DNA of 64,000 nt from Acidimicrobiia bacterium (GTDB lineage: Bacteria; Actinomycetota; Acidimicrobiia; Spongiisociales; JAENVV01): contig JAENVV010000313.1 in NCBI GenBank assembly GCA_016650365.1, positions 3,786 through 67,785 on the forward strand. The letters are read 5' to 3'. The notes beneath the pieces are model-generated. The model made no database searches and had not been told where the DNA came from. It saw nothing but the letters and a program-made list of their open reading frames with translations. This document shows positions 33,049-64,000 of this stretch, piece by piece; position 1 is the stretch's first letter; every line of letters starts with the position of its first letter. The translations under genes and the position numbers were made by a program.

Positions 33049-34368
33049 ATGCCTCGATCATCATGCAGTTTCTGCGGAAAATCTGAATCCGAAGTCCGCC
33101 AGATCGTGGCGGGACCCGATCGGGTAGGCGTGTGCAATGAGTGTGTGGTCTTGTTCGGTGACATCACAAAGGAAGAGTTCGCCGGCGGGGTCCTCGTCTC
33201 TGGCATCGGCGAACTCGTAACCAACGACCCGCTCGTGCCCGGATTACTCGGGGTCCTCGAACACGCCGCGCTAGCCGTGGTCCATGGGGTGGTCGCCTGG
33301 GCGGGACCGGCAGACTCTGTCCCTGAACGCTGGCGTGACTTGCCGACGCTCGACGTGGAGGGACGGGCGGTCATCCCCGGATTTGTCGACGCCCACACCC
33401 ACGCCATTTTCGGTGGTGACACAGCCGATGACTACGCCGACCAGTTGGCCATGTTCGCCGACCCCCCCATGACAGATCTCGGCGCCATTGTCAGGGCCAC
33501 GAGCGCCACCAGTGACGACCACCTTCTTCGTGAGACCAGCGACCGGCTGGAACGGATGTTGCGCATGGGGACCACCACGGTCGAGGTCAAGTCCGGCTTT
33601 GGTATGACGACGATCGGCGAACGCAGGCTCTTGGAGGTGCTCAACCGGGTGGCCGATCAGCACCTCATCGACGTTGTGCCCACACTTTTCTTTCGAGGGA
33701 TCCCGAGCCATGTGGGGCGGTCCGACCATATCCAGACGATCACCGAAGAGACACTTGCCATCTGCGCCCCCCTGGCCACCTACTGTGACGTCTACTGCGA
33801 CGAGACAGGTTTTTCACCTGAGGAGGCCCAGGTGATTCTCGACGCAGCCGCTTCTCACGGTCTACCCGCCCGGGTTCACGCTCAGCGGTTCGGGGCTGAC
33901 GAAAGCGTCATGGTTGCCGTATCGGCGCGGGCAGTGAGCGCCGATCATCTTGATCACGTGACCCGCTCCGAGGCCGGCCGGCTCGCTGAGTCAGGCACCG
34001 TGGCCGTTCTTTTGCCGGGTTCATCATTTGGTATTCGATCGGGCCATGCCCCGGCCAGGATGTTGTGGGAGTCGGGTGTTACCGTAGCGCTTGGCACCGA
34101 CTGCGGCCCGGAAAGCGCCGCCGTCGAGTCCATGCAGTTCGTGGTGGCCCTCGCCAGTGTTGAGATGGGCCTTACTCCGGCCCAGGCTGTGTGGTCGGCC
34201 ACCCGGGGCGGTGCCCTGGCGTTGCAGGAACCGGAAAAGGGCTGGCTCGGTCGGGGGGCGGTTGGCGACTTTGTCGTCCTCGATGCCCCGCGCGCCAACC
34301 ACCTCGTAGCGAGACCCGGCAACAACCTCGCCTGGCACGTCTTCAAAGACGGCCACACCGTCTCCTGA
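33049..34368 (+). CDS. ClpX-type C4 zinc-finger domain fused to imidazolonepropionase-like amidohydrolase
   Basis: The N-terminus [28 protein letters not shown] matches the ClpX N-domain zinc ribbon (CSFCGKSQHEVRKLIAGP..ICDECV). The remainder carries HutI-like motifs [41 protein letters not shown] and LGTDCGP. ATG start with an AAGGG Shine-Dalgarno. Confidence 0.7.
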
Positions 34369-34372
34369 GATC

Positions 34373-34437
34373 GAACCCAGGGTTGAACCCTGGGTTCCTA
34401 CGCCCGAAAACGGGAGCTGGGGCCCCAGGAACGGGTC
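34373..34437. repeat. REP-like compound palindromic element, copy A
   Basis: 25-nt palindrome GAACCCAGGGTT-G-AACCCTGGGTTC, then CCCGAAAACGGG and CTGGGGCCCCAG dyads. Near-identical copies occur at 62.9 kb. Confidence 0.7.
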
Positions 34438-34444
34438 AACAAAT

Positions 34445-34470
34445 CAGGGCCCCGCCGAAGCGGGGCCCTG
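34445..34470 (-). terminator. intrinsic terminator downstream of rpoC
   Basis: 11-bp stem CAGGGCCCCGC / GCGGGGCCCTG with loop CGAA, 20 nt after the rpoC stop. Followed on the minus strand by AUUUGUUG. Confidence 0.55.
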
Positions 34471-34489
34471 ATCCACTAAGTTGGCTCGC

Positions 34490-57481: not shown

Positions 57482-59404
57482 ATGCCCTTGGAACTCGACT
57501 CGAAAGTTCCCGACGGTGACATCGACACCATGTGGGAGAACCACAAGTTCGACATGAAACTGGTGAACCCGAACAACAAACGCAAGTTCAACATCATCGT
57601 CGTAGGGACCGGTCTGGCCGGCGCCTCGGCGGCTGCTTCGTTGGCCGAGCTTGGCTACAACGTCAAGGCATTCACCTATCACGACTCCCCCCGTCGGGCC
57701 CACTCGATTGCCGCCCAGGGTGGCATCAATGCGGCCAAGAACTACCACGGTGACGGTGACTCCGTGTTCCGCTTGTTCTATGACACGGTCAAGGGAGGTG
57801 ACTACCGGTCCCGTGAAGAAAACGTGTACCGGCTCGCCGAGGTGAGTTTGAACATCATCGACCAGGCCACTGCCCAGGGAGTGCCGTTTGCCCGCGAGTA
57901 TGGCGGCAAACTCGATAACCGTTCGTTTGGTGGAGCCCAGGTGTCGCGGACCTTCTATGCCAGGGGCCAGACCGGACAGCAACTTCTGCTCGGCGCCTAC
58001 CAGTCCCTCGCCAGAGTGGTGGGGTTGGGTCAGGTCGAAATGCACACCCGCACCGAGATGCTCGATGTGGTCGTCAAAGACGGACGGGCGGTCGGCATTG
58101 TTACCCGCAACCTGATCACCGGTGAGATCGAATCACATTCGGCTCATGCGGTTGTCCTGGCGACCGGGGGCTACTCCAACGTCTACTACCTGTCGACCAA
58201 CGCCATGGCCTGCAACGCAACTGCCATCTGGCGAGCTCATCGGCGCGGGGCGGCTTTCGCCAACCCGTGTTACACCCAGATTCATCCGACGTGCATTCCG
58301 TCGGCCGAAGAGTTCCAGTCCAAGCTAACGCTTATGTCCGAATCGTTGCGCAACGACGGTCGCATCTGGGTCTCCAAGAAGGCCGGCGACACCCGCAAGG
58401 CAAAAGAGATTCCAGAAGACGAGCGGGACTACTACCTCGAGCGCCGCTACCCGGCGTTCGGCAACCTGGTGCCCCGCGACGTTGCATCTCGCAATGCCGA
58501 ATCGATGATCAACGAGGGCAAAGGGGTGGGGCCGCTCAAGAACGGCGTGTATCTCGATTTCGCCGACCCGATCAAGCGTCTCGGGGAAGACACCATCCGG
58601 GAACGCTACGGCAACCTGTTCGAGATGTACCACCGCATCACCGATGAAAACCCATACGAGACTCCGATGCGCATCTACCCAGCTCCGCACTACACGATGG
58701 GCGGCCTGTGGGTGGACTATCACCTGATGACCAACATTCCCGGTCTCTATGCCATCGGCGAGGCCAACTTCTCAGATCACGGTGCCAACCGCCTGGGCGC
58801 CTCGGCACTCATGCAGGGACTGGCGGACGGATACTTCGTGCTGCCATACACGATCAGCGATTACCTGGCGGGCATGCTCGGCGACCCGGTTGTCCCGACG
58901 GATGATCCGGCTTTCACGGAAATCGAGGCAGAAGTCGCCGACCGAACCAACCATTGGCTCTCGATCAAAGGCACTCGCTCGGCCGACTACTTCCATCGGG
59001 AACTCGGCAAGATCATGATTGCCCACTGTGGCATGTCCCGCAACGAAGCCGGTCTCAAGCAGGCACTCATCGAGATTCCGGCGCTCTATGAGGAGTTCAA
59101 GAAGGACGTGAAGGTGCTCGGCAGCGCCGAGACCTTCAACCAGTCGCTCGAGAACGTCCAACGGGTCGATGACTATTTCCAGCTTGCCGAACTGATGTGC
59201 CTGGATGCTCTCGAACGAGCCGAATCATGTGGTGGTCATTACCGGGAGGAGTCCCAGACCGAAGACGGCGAAGCGTTGCGCAACGACGACGACTTCGCCT
59301 ACGTCGCCGCCTGGGGCTGGACCGGTGATCCCGGCAAAGCCGATCTCACCAAAGAACCGCTCGAGTTCAAATACGTGAAACTATCACAGAGGAGCTACAA
59401 GTAA
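57482..59404 (+). CDS. sdhA: succinate dehydrogenase / fumarate reductase flavoprotein subunit
   Basis: 640 aa with FAD-binding [10 protein letters not shown] and the catalytic RSHS-type motifs. Confidence 0.95.
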
Positions 59405-60168
59405 TGGACCTCACGCTTCAGGTATGGCGCCAGTCAGGACCAAACGCCCCCGGGCGGCTTGTGGAGTATCCAGCCAAGGACATCAGCCCCGACATGTCGT
59501 TCCTCGAAATGCTCGACATCGTCAACGAGGGTCTCAATACCCAGGGGATCGAACCAATCAGCTTTGACCACGACTGCCGTGAGGGAATCTGCGGCATGTG
59601 CGGGCTCATGATCAATGGCCTGGCTCACGGTCCGCAGCTCGGGACCGCAACCTGCCAGCTCCACATGCGAAAGTTCAAGGATGGCGACACGATTGTCATC
59701 GAGCCATGGAAGGCAACCGGGTTCCCGATCGTGCGCGACCTGGCCGTGGACCGGAGCACCTTCGATCGGATCATCGAAGCCGGAGGTTTCATCACGGTAC
59801 CGACCGGATCGGCCTCGGAAGCCAACCTGACCCTGGTTCCCAAAGAAGTTGCCGAGTGGTCGATGGATGCAGCGGCCTGCATCGGATGTGGCGCTTGCGT
59901 GGCTGCCTGCCCCAACTCTGCCGCGCAGCTGTTCACAGCCGCCAAGATCGCTCACCTCTCGCTGCTCCCCCAGGGTCAGCCAGAGCGCTGGACCAGGGTG
60001 GAGGCGATGGTCGACAAGATGGAAGAGTTCTTCGGCTCCTGCACGAACACTGGCGAGTGCGAAACGGCCTGCCCGAAGGAAATCTCGATTGATTTCATCG
60101 CCCTCATGAACAAGGACTACATGAAGGCCAAGTTCAAGAATCGACGCTTGGTCTCTCAGACCGGCTGA
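59404..60168 (+). CDS. sdhB: succinate dehydrogenase / fumarate reductase iron-sulfur subunit
   Basis: 254 aa with 2Fe-2S and 4Fe-4S/3Fe-4S Cys clusters (CxxGxCGxC; [12 protein letters not shown]; [12 protein letters not shown]). Confidence 0.9.
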
Positions 60169-60421
60169 TCGCTCGGGGCCGCCTGGGCTGCTGGCAGATT
60201 TTGCCTATGTAACAGTTGGCCGGCTGCGTCCACTGATTTGATAGAAACCGCTTGAGGAAACTGGCAGATTGCCGATTATTTGAGTATTGGTTAAGCCACA
60301 AGCTGCGACTACTCTGCGTAGCGCTGGGCCGGACGTATGGAACCGATGGCGGTACCGACTCCGGCTGATGTCGGAACAGGGACGGACGGAATAGGGGGAG
60401 CGCTGTCAAGGCGCTGGACGG

Positions 60422-60868
60422 ATGAGAACACTTTTGAAGAAACTTCGTAACCGTGGCAAAGACGAACGCGGCGCCGCCCTCGTCGAGTTTGCAATCATCA
60501 TGCCTCTCTTACTTACTCTGGTTCTTGGAATCGTGGAATTCGGCTGGCTTCTGTCCAACGACCTCGACATCCGCCATGGAGCCCGGGAAGCCGCCCGGCA
60601 AGCCGCTGTCAACGCTGGCTCTGTGGCGACAATGGGGGCCACGACCTGCGATTCGATGAACCTGGCAACCGGCGAAGTTATTACCTTCACACAAATCGGA
60701 GGCTCGGGAATTGGCTCAGAGGCTGAGGTAAAGGTCAGACTCGACCCCTTCAACTCCCTGACAAGCTTCTTTGGGGGGCTCATGCCGGCTGACAGGGAAC
60801 AGGTCGTACGGATCAGACTTGAGCAGCCTGCGACATGGGCGAGTGGAGGAACCTACACATGTCCCTAG
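60422..60868 (+). CDS. TadE/TadG-like pilus assembly protein
   Basis: ERGAALVEFAIIMPLLLTLVLGIVEFG, the TadE-like N-terminal hydrophobic segment. Confidence 0.6.
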   Translation: MRTLLKKLRNRGKDERGAALVEFAIIMPLLLTLVLGIVEFGWLLSNDLDIRHGAREAARQAAVNAGSVATMGATTCDSMNLATGEVITFTQIGGSGIGSEAEVKVRLDPFNSLTSFFGGLMPADREQVVRIRLEQPATWASGGTYTCP

Positions 60869-62364
60869 CTCGTCTCAAGGACGAACGTGGCGCAACCGCC
60901 ATTCTGGTGGCCACCATGATGATCTTCCTCCTCGGGATGGCAGCCTTGGCCATTGACGTAGGATTTGGCTTCAACGAACGCCGGCAGGACCAAACCGCCG
61001 CCGACGCTGGGGCGCTCGCAGCAGCCGTCGAAGCGAAGGTGCTCGGCAACACGAACGGTGTCGTTACCGAAGCTCTCGACTACGTCCGAGCGAACCTCGA
61101 CACCACGTACACCAACGCCGAATGGGAGGCCATGTGGCTCGCCTGCACGGACCCCGAAAAGAGCGTTGCTCCTCTGGCTGCCTACAACTTCATCCCTGTA
61201 AGTACGCCGACATCATGGACGTCCTCAGGCACGTTGGACTGCATGAGCATCTCGTCGGCCGGGTACTTCCGCGTCAACGTCCCTGACCAAATCGTCGAGA
61301 CAACTTTCGGCAAGGTGTTAGGAGTCAGCCAACTGACGACGAGCGCTGATGCTATCAGTCGCCTAGCCGGGGTCGGTACGGGCGGCATCCTTCCCTTCGG
61401 ACTCCCTGCATCCATCGGCGAAGGAAACCACTCCTGTTTGAGCTCGGGACCAAAAGGAAATGCTGAGCCGCCGTGTGATGGCGCCGCGAACGGGAACTTT
61501 GGTGTGCTCAAAGCGAGATTGTTCGGCAATACGACCATGGGTACACCACAGAACTGCACAGCATCCCCGCTGGGCCAAGTCCTCGCAGTAAACATTGCTG
61601 CGGGCCTTGATCACTGGGTAACACTCGACGGAGACGGCCTCAACAGCAACGAGGTCCGAGATGTATGCGCCAACGAAGGCCAGGGTGTCGACACCCTGAA
61701 CACGGATACAGGATTCCCAGGCAACGGTGCCGAGGAGGGTCTCGCGACCGGTCCGGTCAACTACGGTTTTGCGCCTCGCCTACAGCAAGGCCCCCCAGGT
61801 GACCGCGCCAGCCGATTCGGATACCAGTTGAACGATAAACCGCTGTGGGCTTATCTGGTGGGCGGCCTCCAATCAATCACTCCGGGTCCTACGTTCGTGC
61901 CCGCCGCCTGCCTTGGGTTCGACAACGTCACAGAGTCGGACTTCGATTGGGACAGTGACGGAACGCTAGACCGCCCCGAGTCGTGGCAGCACATGGCCAC
62001 TTGTTTGACTAATTACGTGGCAGGGTCCTACTCCGCTGTCATGTTCACCGAGACCTTGGAGACCAACCCCAGGTTCGCCTATGTACCTCAATTCTATGAA
62101 GACGCCCTCGGCAATGGCAGTTCCTGGCTGCACATAAAACGCTTCAAAGCCATTTTCATCCAGGGAACCTGGTGGAAAAAGAGCGGGGCGACCCTGGCTT
62201 TTCATCCGGGCGAGATATGTGCTGGATGCAGCGCCAACGGCTACTCGATGCTTCAGCTTTCGGGATTCATCATGCCAGACAATGCTCTCCCGACATCGTT
62301 ACGCGCTGACCCCCCACCGGGTGGGGGCTTCGGACCCTACGACGACGTCGAACTCTGGCGTTAG
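60859..62364 (+). CDS. TadG-like (Tad N-terminal domain) protein with Cys-containing C-terminal region
   Basis: ERGATAILVATMMIFLLGMAALAIDVG, then about 440 aa of unknown fold. Overlaps the TadE-like gene by 10 nt. Confidence 0.5.
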   Translation: MSLARLKDERGATAILVATMMIFLLGMAALAIDVGFGFNERRQDQTAADAGALAAAVEAKVLGNTNGVVTEALDYVRANLDTTYTNAEWEAMWLACTDPEKSVAPLAAYNFIPVSTPTSWTSSGTLDCMSISSAGYFRVNVPDQIVETTFGKVLGVSQLTTSADAISRLAGVGTGGILPFGLPASIGEGNHSCLSSGPKGNAEPPCDGAANGNFGVLKARLFGNTTMGTPQNCTASPLGQVLAVNIAAGLDHWVTLDGDGLNSNEVRDVCANEGQGVDTLNTDTGFPGNGAEEGLATGPVNYGFAPRLQQGPPGDRASRFGYQLNDKPLWAYLVGGLQSITPGPTFVPAACLGFDNVTESDFDWDSDGTLDRPESWQHMATCLTNYVAGSYSAVMFTETLETNPRFAYVPQFYEDALGNGSSWLHIKRFKAIFIQGTWWKKSGATLAFHPGEICAGCSANGYSMLQLSGFIMPDNALPTSLRADPPPGGGFGPYDDVELWR

Positions 62365-62857: not shown

Positions 62858-62914
62858 GGAACCCTGGGTTCAACCCCGGGTTCCAACACCCACTATCGGG
62901 CGCTGGGGCCCTCA
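62858..62914. repeat. REP-like compound palindromic element, copy B (degenerate)
   Basis: GGAACCCTGGGTTCAACCCCGGGTTCC...CGCTGGGGCCC, related to the element at 34373. Confidence 0.6.
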
Positions 62915-62940
62915 GAAGAGACAGAAGCACCCGTGTTTTC

Positions 62941-62995
62941 AACCCTGGGTTGAACCCAGGGTTCACGCGCCCGAAATCGGGAGCTGGGGCCCACA
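62941..62995. repeat. REP-like compound palindromic element, copy C
   Basis: AACCCTGGGTTGAACCCAGGGTTCACGCGCCCGAAATCGGGAGCTGGGGCCC, a near-identical arrangement to copy A. Confidence 0.7.
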
Positions 62996-63006
62996 GTATG
63001 GGAGGG

Positions 63007-63921
63007 TCAGGCTGCCGACCTGGCCGCGAGCGCTTTGACGACCTGTTCGGCCACCTCATCCGGTCGATCTTTTACGTCTTCCATCGTGAACCGGATCACG
63101 ACCCAACCATTGGTCGCGGCTACCCGGTCACGTTGCCGATCCCTATCGAAGTCGTCGACTCGGGTGTGCCAACGACGCGAATCCCACTCGATTGCCAGAC
63201 GTCGATCGGGAAAGGCCACATCAAAACGCCAGGTCGGCGCGAAGGCCGGAGAATATTGAGTTTCGGACCCACTGATTCCCGCCATGCTCAAAGCGGCGAG
63301 GCCCAGACGTTCAAGAGGAGTGGCGTCCGGATCGGTACCTGCCTGGCGTGACTCTACGAGTTCGCGCATGACTGATGTGCCGACTCTGCCGCGACGACCG
63401 ACATCGAGAAGCACCGTCTCAAGCCGAGCGATGCTCGTACGGCCGCCAGTCACCAAATCGTCGACTATCTGTGCCAACGCCAGTGCACCGACTCGCGACG
63501 CAAGGTCGAAGACCGTGCGCTCGAGGTTGGTGACCGAGCACCCGGACAGCCTTGCGACGTGGCTGGTCAACAAGTCATCTGTCCGATGAACGATCACCCC
63601 CGGAAACCGATGAGTCGCCGAACGCGGCACCGTAACCGAACATCGGCCGTGGCTGAAGCCGGCAATATTGTGAAGCATCGCAGCCGACTCATGAGACACC
63701 ACGGATCCAGGAAGAGCCGCGAGCGCTCCTCGCAAAGTCTCAAGTCGGTCGCCGGGTTCAAAGACGCGATACACCCCGTTGGCCACTTTTCGAATATCTC
63801 CGACCTCGAGCCGTCGAGAAATCGCAGAGGACGTAAGCCCCAATTCGAGGAGCTGATCACGTCGGACGACCCCACCTTGGCGGGCGGCTAGTTGAGCGAA
63901 TGCCTGATTCGTTGATGCCAT
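63007..63921 (-). CDS. DUF559 (Vsr-like endonuclease fold) protein with AbiEi-like N-terminal domain
   Basis: The C-terminus RRLAIEWDSRRWHTRVDDFDRDRQRDRVAATNGWVVIRFT is typical of the DUF559 family abundant in Actinobacteria. The start is assigned to internal MASTNQAF. Confidence 0.5.
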   Translation of the reverse strand: MASTNQAFAQLAARQGGVVRRDQLLELGLTSSAISRRLEVGDIRKVANGVYRVFEPGDRLETLRGALAALPGSVVSHESAAMLHNIAGFSHGRCSVTVPRSATHRFPGVIVHRTDDLLTSHVARLSGCSVTNLERTVFDLASRVGALALAQIVDDLVTGGRTSIARLETVLLDVGRRGRVGTSVMRELVESRQAGTDPDATPLERLGLAALSMAGISGSETQYSPAFAPTWRFDVAFPDRRLAIEWDSRRWHTRVDDFDRDRQRDRVAATNGWVVIRFTMEDVKDRPDEVAEQVVKALAARSAA

Positions 63922-64000
63922 GCGCCATGTTCCGGCATCTCGCGCCAGAAATCTAGAGGGTCGCCACAAACAACCGAGGGCTGGAGCGCCCGATAACGGG

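Follow-up and report, generated by a model that had tools for sequence, protein, structure and literature searches.

The window analysed here, a 64,000-nucleotide stretch of contig JAENVV010000313.1 (positions 3,786 to 67,785) from an Acidimicrobiia bacterium, carries three full copies of a 60-nt palindromic element, a fourth, inverted copy cut by the window end, and a minus-strand gene (63007..63921) encoding a 304-residue AbiEi-like/DUF559 fusion protein. The copies comprise (i) copy A (34374..34433, plus strand; nhmmer, 63 bits), a dispersed, solo copy placed between the stop of an amidohydrolase gene (34368) and the 3′ end of rpoC (34490); (ii) copy B (62860..62919, plus strand; nhmmer, 61 bits), the outer member of a tandem pair located between the stop of the SCP2 gene (62843) and the DUF559 gene; (iii) copy C (62941..63000, plus strand; nhmmer, 58.7 bits), the inner bracket copy, whose tail ends 6 nt from the DUF559 stop codon (63007-63009, minus strand); and (iv) copy D (63971..64000, minus strand), upstream of the DUF559 gene, of which the window shows the tail and half of the hairpin, position 64000 being reached before the palindromes. 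Copy D matches the complete upstream copy of a 95%-identical relative, L063 (1368-1431), and also L062, L064, L020, and L030, the loci compared being 8-kb pieces of incomplete metagenome-assembled genomes (MAGs), labelled L001 onward. Copies B and C on one side and copy D on the other are inverted around the DUF559 gene, with their tails towards it. The original prediction placed the module correctly at A, B, and C and counted three copies, which copy D, starting at 63971 in reverse orientation, raises to four; it had B and C abut the DUF559 stop, which is the case for C, whereas B lies 87 nt away, and it spotted the DUF559 gene and missed the inverted bracketing copies, the informative feature.

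The element is built from (i) two 11-nt palindromes, AACCC-N-GGGTT, 1 nt apart; (ii) a middle segment, which forms a hairpin in the clade of the window (consensus CCAGCGCCCGATATCGGGCGCTGG) and is degenerate in the window copies; and (iii) a tail, taking the form GGCCCC-AAGAAC or CAGCCC-N-GGTTC in this clade (general form GCCC-N3-G-W-W-C). In copy A, the palindromes occupy 34374-34384 and 34386-34396, the degenerate hairpin 34397-34420, and the tail GCCCCAGGAAC starts at 34422, while the second palindrome of copy B reads AACCCCGGGTT. The 25-nt palindrome first proposed, GAACCCAGGGTTGAACCCTGGGTTC, matches at 34373-34397 with 0 mismatches and at 62859-62883 and 62940-62964 with 2-3 mismatches, and at no position in 100 dinucleotide-preserving shuffles of the window; the unit is, however, really the two separate 11-nt palindromes, and the second of the dyads described with it belongs to the longer hairpin within the conserved 60 nt. 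The motif AACCCWGGGTT occurs six times in the window, against 0.81 expected, always within copies A-C. These copies form the top family in a repeat search of the window, B being 81% and C 88% identical to A over 52 nt, so that the identity of more than 85% initially ascribed to the copies applies to C and not to B. A total of 43 copies from the window and related genomes align gap-free, and the information content of 29 copies from independent sites sets the conserved extent at 60 nt, preceded by 10 weakly conserved nucleotides on the 5′ side; the flanks show no conservation. Single palindromes, triplets, and pairs 8 nt apart are found as well, and some spacers are taken up completely by arrays. 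Compound copies occur as well: L004 (1390-1482) displays one palindrome pair with hairpin-and-tail modules on either side, and L050 (2957-3045) one hairpin-and-tail module with palindrome pairs on either side, an arrangement that suggests recombination between copies.

The protein encoded by the bracketed gene is assigned to the Pfam families AbiEi_4 (37 bits) and DUF559 (26.5 bits, cut-off 20.6), both above cut-off, as well as to MTES_1575, and the PADLOC AbiEi models span residues 4-200. A search of the PDB by sequence gave no match, and a fold search was needed. Using the AlphaFold2 model (predicted local distance difference test score of 92.7), Foldseek relates the first ca. 200 residues to the AbiEi antitoxin (6y8q) and Rv2827c (1zel), and the last ca. 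100 residues to I-Bth0305I (3r3p, template-modelling score 0.81), NGO0050 (3hrl), and Vsr (1cw0). On this model, the N-terminal ca. 200 residues are predicted to form an AbiEi-like winged helix-turn-helix (wHTH) DNA-binding region and the C-terminal ca. 100 residues a Vsr/DUF559-type PD-(D/E)XK nuclease. The residues D234, E245, D247, H252, D261, and R264 are invariant in 30 homologues, so that the Vsr-like fold carries the conserved acidic and histidine residues of the Vsr/DUF559 nucleases. The family is large, with 17,437 cluster representatives at E ≤ 1e-3, 6,684 at 1e-10, and 239 at 1e-30; a metagenome scan with the DUF559 protein returned one locus.

Compared to AbiEi and Rv2827c of type IV toxin-antitoxin systems, the protein shares the AbiEi fold over its N-terminal two-thirds and the presence of palindromes upstream of its gene, but it carries a fused nuclease domain, and the repeats also lie downstream and elsewhere; no AbiEii (DUF1814) toxin gene occurs next to it or in any examined locus, the neighbors in the window being SCP2 and Mdh. 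Compared to Vsr and the EDxHD homing endonucleases such as I-Bth0305I, it shares the C-terminal fold and the D...E-x-D...H...D-R motif, but its gene is free-standing and not located in an intron or intein, the site is CCNGG, and nothing indicates mismatch repair. CCWGG, the sequence context of E. coli Vsr, sits in the palindrome core. A link to restriction or Dcm was discarded, as the window shows no depletion of CCWGG (observed/expected 1.13) or of other palindromes.

The bracket of the window type is also present in L020, L030, L062, L063, and L064. Beyond these close relatives, homologues of the DUF559 gene are bracketed in six genomic contexts: (i) Mdh and SCP2 in L071 (42% identity to the window protein); (ii) proC and Macro in L065-69 and L075 (43-47%); (iii) CTP synthase and AMP-binding in L070 (44%); (iv) peptidase M1 and 6PGD in L072 (42%); (v) SerA and a contig end in L073 (43%); and (vi) CBS and DUF87 in L087 (40%). 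In all six, the upstream spacer and the reverse-complemented downstream spacer have a 45-60 nt element in common, with spacer-against-spacer scores at z = 12-34 relative to dinucleotide shuffles and the observed value reached by none of 300 shuffles; the bracket is present in every lineage tested at 40% identity or more. The elements are lineage variants of one plan, comprising an outer palindrome centred on CCC-N-GGG, an unrelated middle, and an inner tail, R-GCCC-A/C-N-R-G-W-W-C. On the downstream side, the tail directly adjoins the stop codon in all lineages; on the upstream side, 50-110 nt separate the bracket from the start codon. Bracket copies have been duplicated in tandem in the window, L063, L065, L071, and L073 as separate events, and L072 displays extra palindrome units beside the gene; at the downstream bracket of the window, the second copy is a local tandem duplication, since L020, L030, L062, and L064 hold one copy and the second copy of L063 is degenerate. 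The best reading of these comparisons is a family of 60-nt modular palindromic DNA elements that appears tied to gene 63007-63921.

A conserved motif, CTCTAGATT, lies between the upstream bracket copy and the DUF559 start in the window (63922-63970), L063 (1432-1482), and L064 (3898-3950), and may be part of a promoter or an additional binding site; no sigma-70-like promoter was called in the DUF559 upstream region.

The distance from the palindrome centre to the GCCC of the tail is 31-32 nt in 22 of the 22 elements with a recognisable tail, and the middle segment outside the clade of the window folds no better than shuffles; this constant spacing without a folding middle points to phasing on duplex DNA, across about three helical turns, and sets aside the middle hairpin as a universal feature. 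The main rival explanation is that the elements are protein-binding sites only: the bracket copies would be operators for autoregulation, possibly with looping between them, the dispersed copies would be the sites of a regulon or of nucleoid organization, and the nuclease domain would have another role, for example in defence or repair, without propagating repeats. AbiEi and Rv2827c, the structural matches of the N-terminal region, bind inverted repeats upstream of their own genes and autoregulate (PMC7319586), and the upstream bracket is positioned before the start codon at a distance compatible with this explanation. Strictly conserved palindrome arms around a free central base, together with a fixed spacing, are what is usually seen where proteins recognise duplex DNA; about one in four independent sites falls in a divergent promoter region, and the sites persist from species to species with less change than at synonymous positions. 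On the other side, a 60-nt module, tail and hairpin included, that keeps 80-90% identity between non-homologous loci is not what transcription factor sites normally look like; the downstream bracket abuts the stop codon throughout; and the recurrent tandem duplication, along with dispersed copies that match the bracket variant of their own lineage, points to copying from a common source. Binding without propagation is rated as fairly unlikely.

The correspondence between bracket and dispersed copies is seen in several lineages. Copies of a lineage's own variant away from the gene comprise copy A in the window, L065 1371-1428 (2.6 kb off), and L071 294-335 (5.7 kb off), the window-type copies amounting to copy A plus ca. 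27 independent MAG sites. A further case comes from another class: in the cultured Tsukamurella tyrosinosolvens NCTC13231, two copies of a 42-nt palindrome of unrelated sequence, TGCGGTGGATTCTCACCGCTCAGCGGGCAATATCCACCGCA, enclose a 29.5%-identical DUF559 gene, the copies being 39/42 identical (score 69, against a shuffle maximum of 25). The bracketed gene is on L088 (1380-2443), and the palindrome turns up again in ordinary spacers between genes on two more records from the strain (L089, 2501-2542; L090, 2501-2542). The repeat in the flanks of the gene is also a dispersed one in the clade of the window, L065, L071, and Tsukamurella. The NCTC13231 assembly contains more than 20 deposited "plasmids" that resemble chromosome fragments with housekeeping genes (nrdF, pntB).

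A gene tightly bounded by inverted repeats in six contexts also resembles an autonomous selfish unit, akin to an insertion sequence (IS) or a homing element, of which the solo elements would be left-over or abortive ends. The nearest solved nuclease fold, I-Bth0305I, exemplifies that a Vsr-fold enzyme can be a homing endonuclease (PMC3239194); the L087 bracket copies are 49/50 identical, which indicates recent copying or homogenization; and the DUF559 gene evolves far faster than its neighbors, with Mdh at 96% identity versus DUF559 at 72%, and Mdh at 82% versus DUF559 at 43%. Nevertheless, the gene keeps the same neighbors over deep divergence (Mdh and SCP2 down to 42% identity, proC and Macro at 58-66%), no second copy of it was found in the window or in ca. 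45 element-bearing loci, and there are no target-site duplications. This pattern is closer to that of the REP-associated tyrosine transposases (RAYTs), single-copy, vertically inherited genes with repetitive extragenic palindromic (REP) sequences in their flanks (PMC3116915), than to that of an active IS, and the selfish-unit explanation appears improbable.

The dispersal of the window-type element was followed across genomes. An exact scan for the 23-nt pattern, with one genome per species, returned 61 stretches, ca. 50 of them in at least nine Acidimicrobiia MAGs and with a maximum of 16 exact palindrome pairs in one MAG, and a profile search of the window and the pattern-found loci returned 61 full-length copies, 60 of which are intergenic. 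The original prediction of a dispersed, REP-type family of compound palindromic intergenic elements is thus borne out, further copies existing well outside the window. Grouping of orthologous sites leaves ca. 27 independent ones, placed between tandem (13), divergent (6-8), or convergent (6-7) genes, and between tandem genes the element runs with them in 12 cases and against them in 8. The copies are mainly singlets or direct tandems, not inverted doublets. The coding DNA of the window is 82-89% identical to some of the element-bearing loci, which marks its source as a related, uncultured species of Acidimicrobiia. Orthologous sites, with one to three copies each, are occupied in two to five species. 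Orthologous copies are ca. 80% identical, against 46-68% at the third codon positions of the flanking genes. The palindrome arms (10 positions per palindrome) are invariant, with the caveat that the copies were retrieved with a pattern that fixes the arms, whereas variation is free in the spacer and at the central base, where all four bases occur, and is seen among orthologous copies too.

The plasmid collection gave no match to the element, and the other pattern hits comprise a few singletons and a conserved tRNA-adjacent hairpin in Segatella copri and its phages. There, a 23-nt double palindrome, AACCCAGGGTTGAACCCTGGGTT, directly follows the 3′ end of a tRNA gene and precedes a T-run (L001, L005, L010, and others); the same hairpin occurs in gut viral contigs of ca. 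0.42 GC content (IMG/VR, L076-L086), the rest of the element being absent. It looks like a terminator or attachment site that shares the 23-mer by chance. In the full-text literature, no bacterial paper with the motif was found, nor one describing REP elements in Acidimicrobiia.

Action at the RNA level, as an intrinsic terminator, an mRNA 3′-end stabilizer, or a small RNA, might be suspected from the window, in which every copy follows a gene 3′ end and the copies fold into two stem-loops (z from −2.2 to −5.6). An association with gene 3′ ends, one of the possibilities raised for the element, does not extend to the family, given the distribution over tandem, divergent, and convergent spacers and the mixed orientations. 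The elements have no T-tract and a terminator scan is silent on them, the hit nearest to copy A (34449-34461, minus strand) lying in a separate hairpin. The suggested examination of RNA structure disclosed no covariation beyond shuffles in the hairpin (pair counts over 43 copies), with 34 G-U against 33 A-C mismatches, a symmetric pattern free of strand asymmetry, and Rfam gave no match at the gathering or E-value level. A single long hairpin formed by both 11-mers was likewise rejected: of 42 copies, just 21 have central bases that could pair between the two palindromes (AU 12, UA 9, other 21). The bracket elements of the other lineages, as described above, fold no better than shuffles. There are signs, instead, that the constraint on the element acts at the DNA level and not at the RNA level, and an RNA-level role is regarded as the least probable of the explanations weighed here.

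The elements could, alternatively, be classical REPs mobilized by a RAYT (a Y1 HUH transposase) encoded elsewhere, or miniature inverted-repeat transposable elements (MITEs) of a DDE IS, the bracketing of the DUF559 gene being coincidental. The general look of the repeats, short, palindromic, intergenic, dispersed, and in tandem clusters, is in keeping with this explanation, as is the limitation of the search to locus pieces. However, no Y1_Tnp or other transposase family occurs among the families matched by at least three of 150 neighboring genes, a result that covers neighbors in pieces of incomplete MAGs and the 25 commonest families among them, which are housekeeping; the proposed association with a RAYT gene is therefore not seen in these neighborhoods. 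The AbiEi/DUF559 gene is the only one recurrently bracketed, and the bracket recurs with lineage-specific variants, the unrelated Tsukamurella palindrome included, for which chance is no explanation. The elements also lack a 5′ GTAG, terminal inverted repeats, and target-site duplications. For the same reasons, the MITE character first attributed to them was dropped: the two ends differ (palindrome versus tail), and no conserved flank or target is present. The resemblance to Correia MITEs and to the bacterial interspersed mosaic elements (BIMEs) of E. coli is confined to the small, non-coding, intergenic nature of the repeats and to mosaic sub-units in singles, doubles, and triples, since there is no parent DDE IS and no alternating REP orientation as in BIMEs. 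A hidden RAYT or parent IS is accordingly deemed very unlikely; together with the IS-like unit and the RNA-level roles, it is less likely than the binding-sites-only explanation.

REP-type repeats and their RAYT genes are, to our knowledge, the only well-described case in bacteria of a short repeat population with a long-term single-copy enzyme, and they are known mainly from Proteobacteria. Typical REPs, and the REPINs formed from them, consist of 20-40 nt imperfect palindromes with a conserved 5′ GTAG, mostly arranged as inverted doublets. The likeness of the present system lies in its short palindromic intergenic repeats, in what may be many copies and often in tandem clusters (four in the 64-kb window and up to 16 exact pairs per MAG, counted in incomplete genomes), in the variant that each gene lineage has as its own, and in a cognate gene that appears single-copy and vertically inherited. 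The differences comprise (i) the associated protein, which combines an AbiEi-type wHTH with a Vsr/DUF559 domain and is not a Y1 HUH transposase; (ii) the repeat, a 60-nt composite with two unlike ends, a fixed spacing of 31-32 nt, and no 5′ GTAG, found mostly as singlets or direct tandems and not as inverted doublets; and (iii) the hosts, which are Actinomycetota. From the comparative sequence evidence, a REP/RAYT-like system of repeats plus cognate gene, built on an AbiEi-wHTH/Vsr-like nuclease, stands at about even chances of being correct.

In such a REP/RAYT-like system, the AbiEi-like domain would bind the AACCC-N-GGGTT palindromes as a dimer, a reasonable expectation by analogy with AbiEi and Rv2827c. 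Binding would place the Vsr-like nuclease domain at the tail GCCC-N3-G-W-W-C, 31-32 bp, or three helical turns, away, and the upstream copy would probably also act as an autoregulatory operator. The geometry, the conserved catalytic residues, and the repeated duplication of bracket copies suggest that the protein may cut close to the tail and take part in multiplying and dispersing the copies: if the elements were nicked or broken, their repair could give rise to the tandem duplications at the bracket and could occasionally copy an element into other intergenic spacers, where copies would persist for long. The binding, the cleavage site, and protein-driven dispersal are all, at this stage, what we infer from sequence.

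Several observations weigh against this proposal. The evidence is comparative throughout, and no filled-versus-empty site pair was found among the loci, so that movement of the element remains a proposal. A large share of the sites is ancient and occupied in more than one species, a pattern expected of stable functional sites no less than of mobile ones. L070, L072, L073, and L087 are without a dispersed copy in the 7-13 kb stretches compared, and the distant homologue L074 (32% identity) is without a bracket. The tRNA-editing gene in L042/L043 is also flanked by inverted copies; bracketing was therefore rejected as stand-alone proof, flanking alone being weak in the clade of the window, and the argument rests on recurrence across lineages. 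The use of 8-kb pieces of incomplete MAGs limits the counts of copies and of DUF559 genes per genome, and a RAYT or another transposase could lie elsewhere. Enzymes of the Vsr type are nickases of duplex mismatches, and we know of no transposition chemistry for the Vsr fold.

Other features of the window bear less directly on the element. A perfect GC-rich hairpin, CAGGGCCCCGC-CGAA-GCGGGGCCCTG, spans 34446-34472, between copy A and the rpoC stop (34490); on the minus strand it is followed by a T-rich stretch, the terminator scan flagging 34461-34449, and it is probably the rpoC terminator, separate from the repeat. The gene upstream of copy A, described in the original prediction as HutI-like, is an amidohydrolase (33049-34368, plus strand; Amidohydro_1/3) that is not a plain HutI: translation from the upstream ATG would give it a ClpX-type C4 zinc finger at the N-terminus (residues 5-42, 51 bits), an unusual fusion, whereas the start preferred by a codon-usage caller, 33106, would leave out half of that finger. 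The segment 60613-62384, comprising most of a gene for a 509-residue Tad/Flp-pilus-like protein (60835-62364), has no match at E ≤ 1e-10 to L020 and L030, which do align to its left (57838-60613) and right (62384 onward); it is either a variable insert or a strongly diverged region.

Full-text literature searches turned up no link between repeats, flanking or dispersed, and DUF559, MTES_1575, or AbiEi_4 proteins. The comparisons provide a candidate DNA target, AACCC-N-GGGTT plus a tail 31-32 bp away, for the large DUF559/AbiEi family, which has no known function, and the proposed system would account for the palindromes that recur between genes in Acidimicrobiia MAGs and that probably cause breaks in assemblies. 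It can be suggested, tentatively and with somewhat less than even confidence, that the AbiEi-wHTH/DUF559 fusions, a large uncharacterized family of Actinomycetota, are domesticated cognate nucleases of their own repeat families. If true, this would be a second, independently evolved partnership of repeat and enzyme, based on a PD-(D/E)XK nickase guided by a duplex-binding wHTH and not on a single-strand HUH transposase. Even if the nuclease only binds the elements, an operator and a regulon would be defined for an AbiEi-like regulator.
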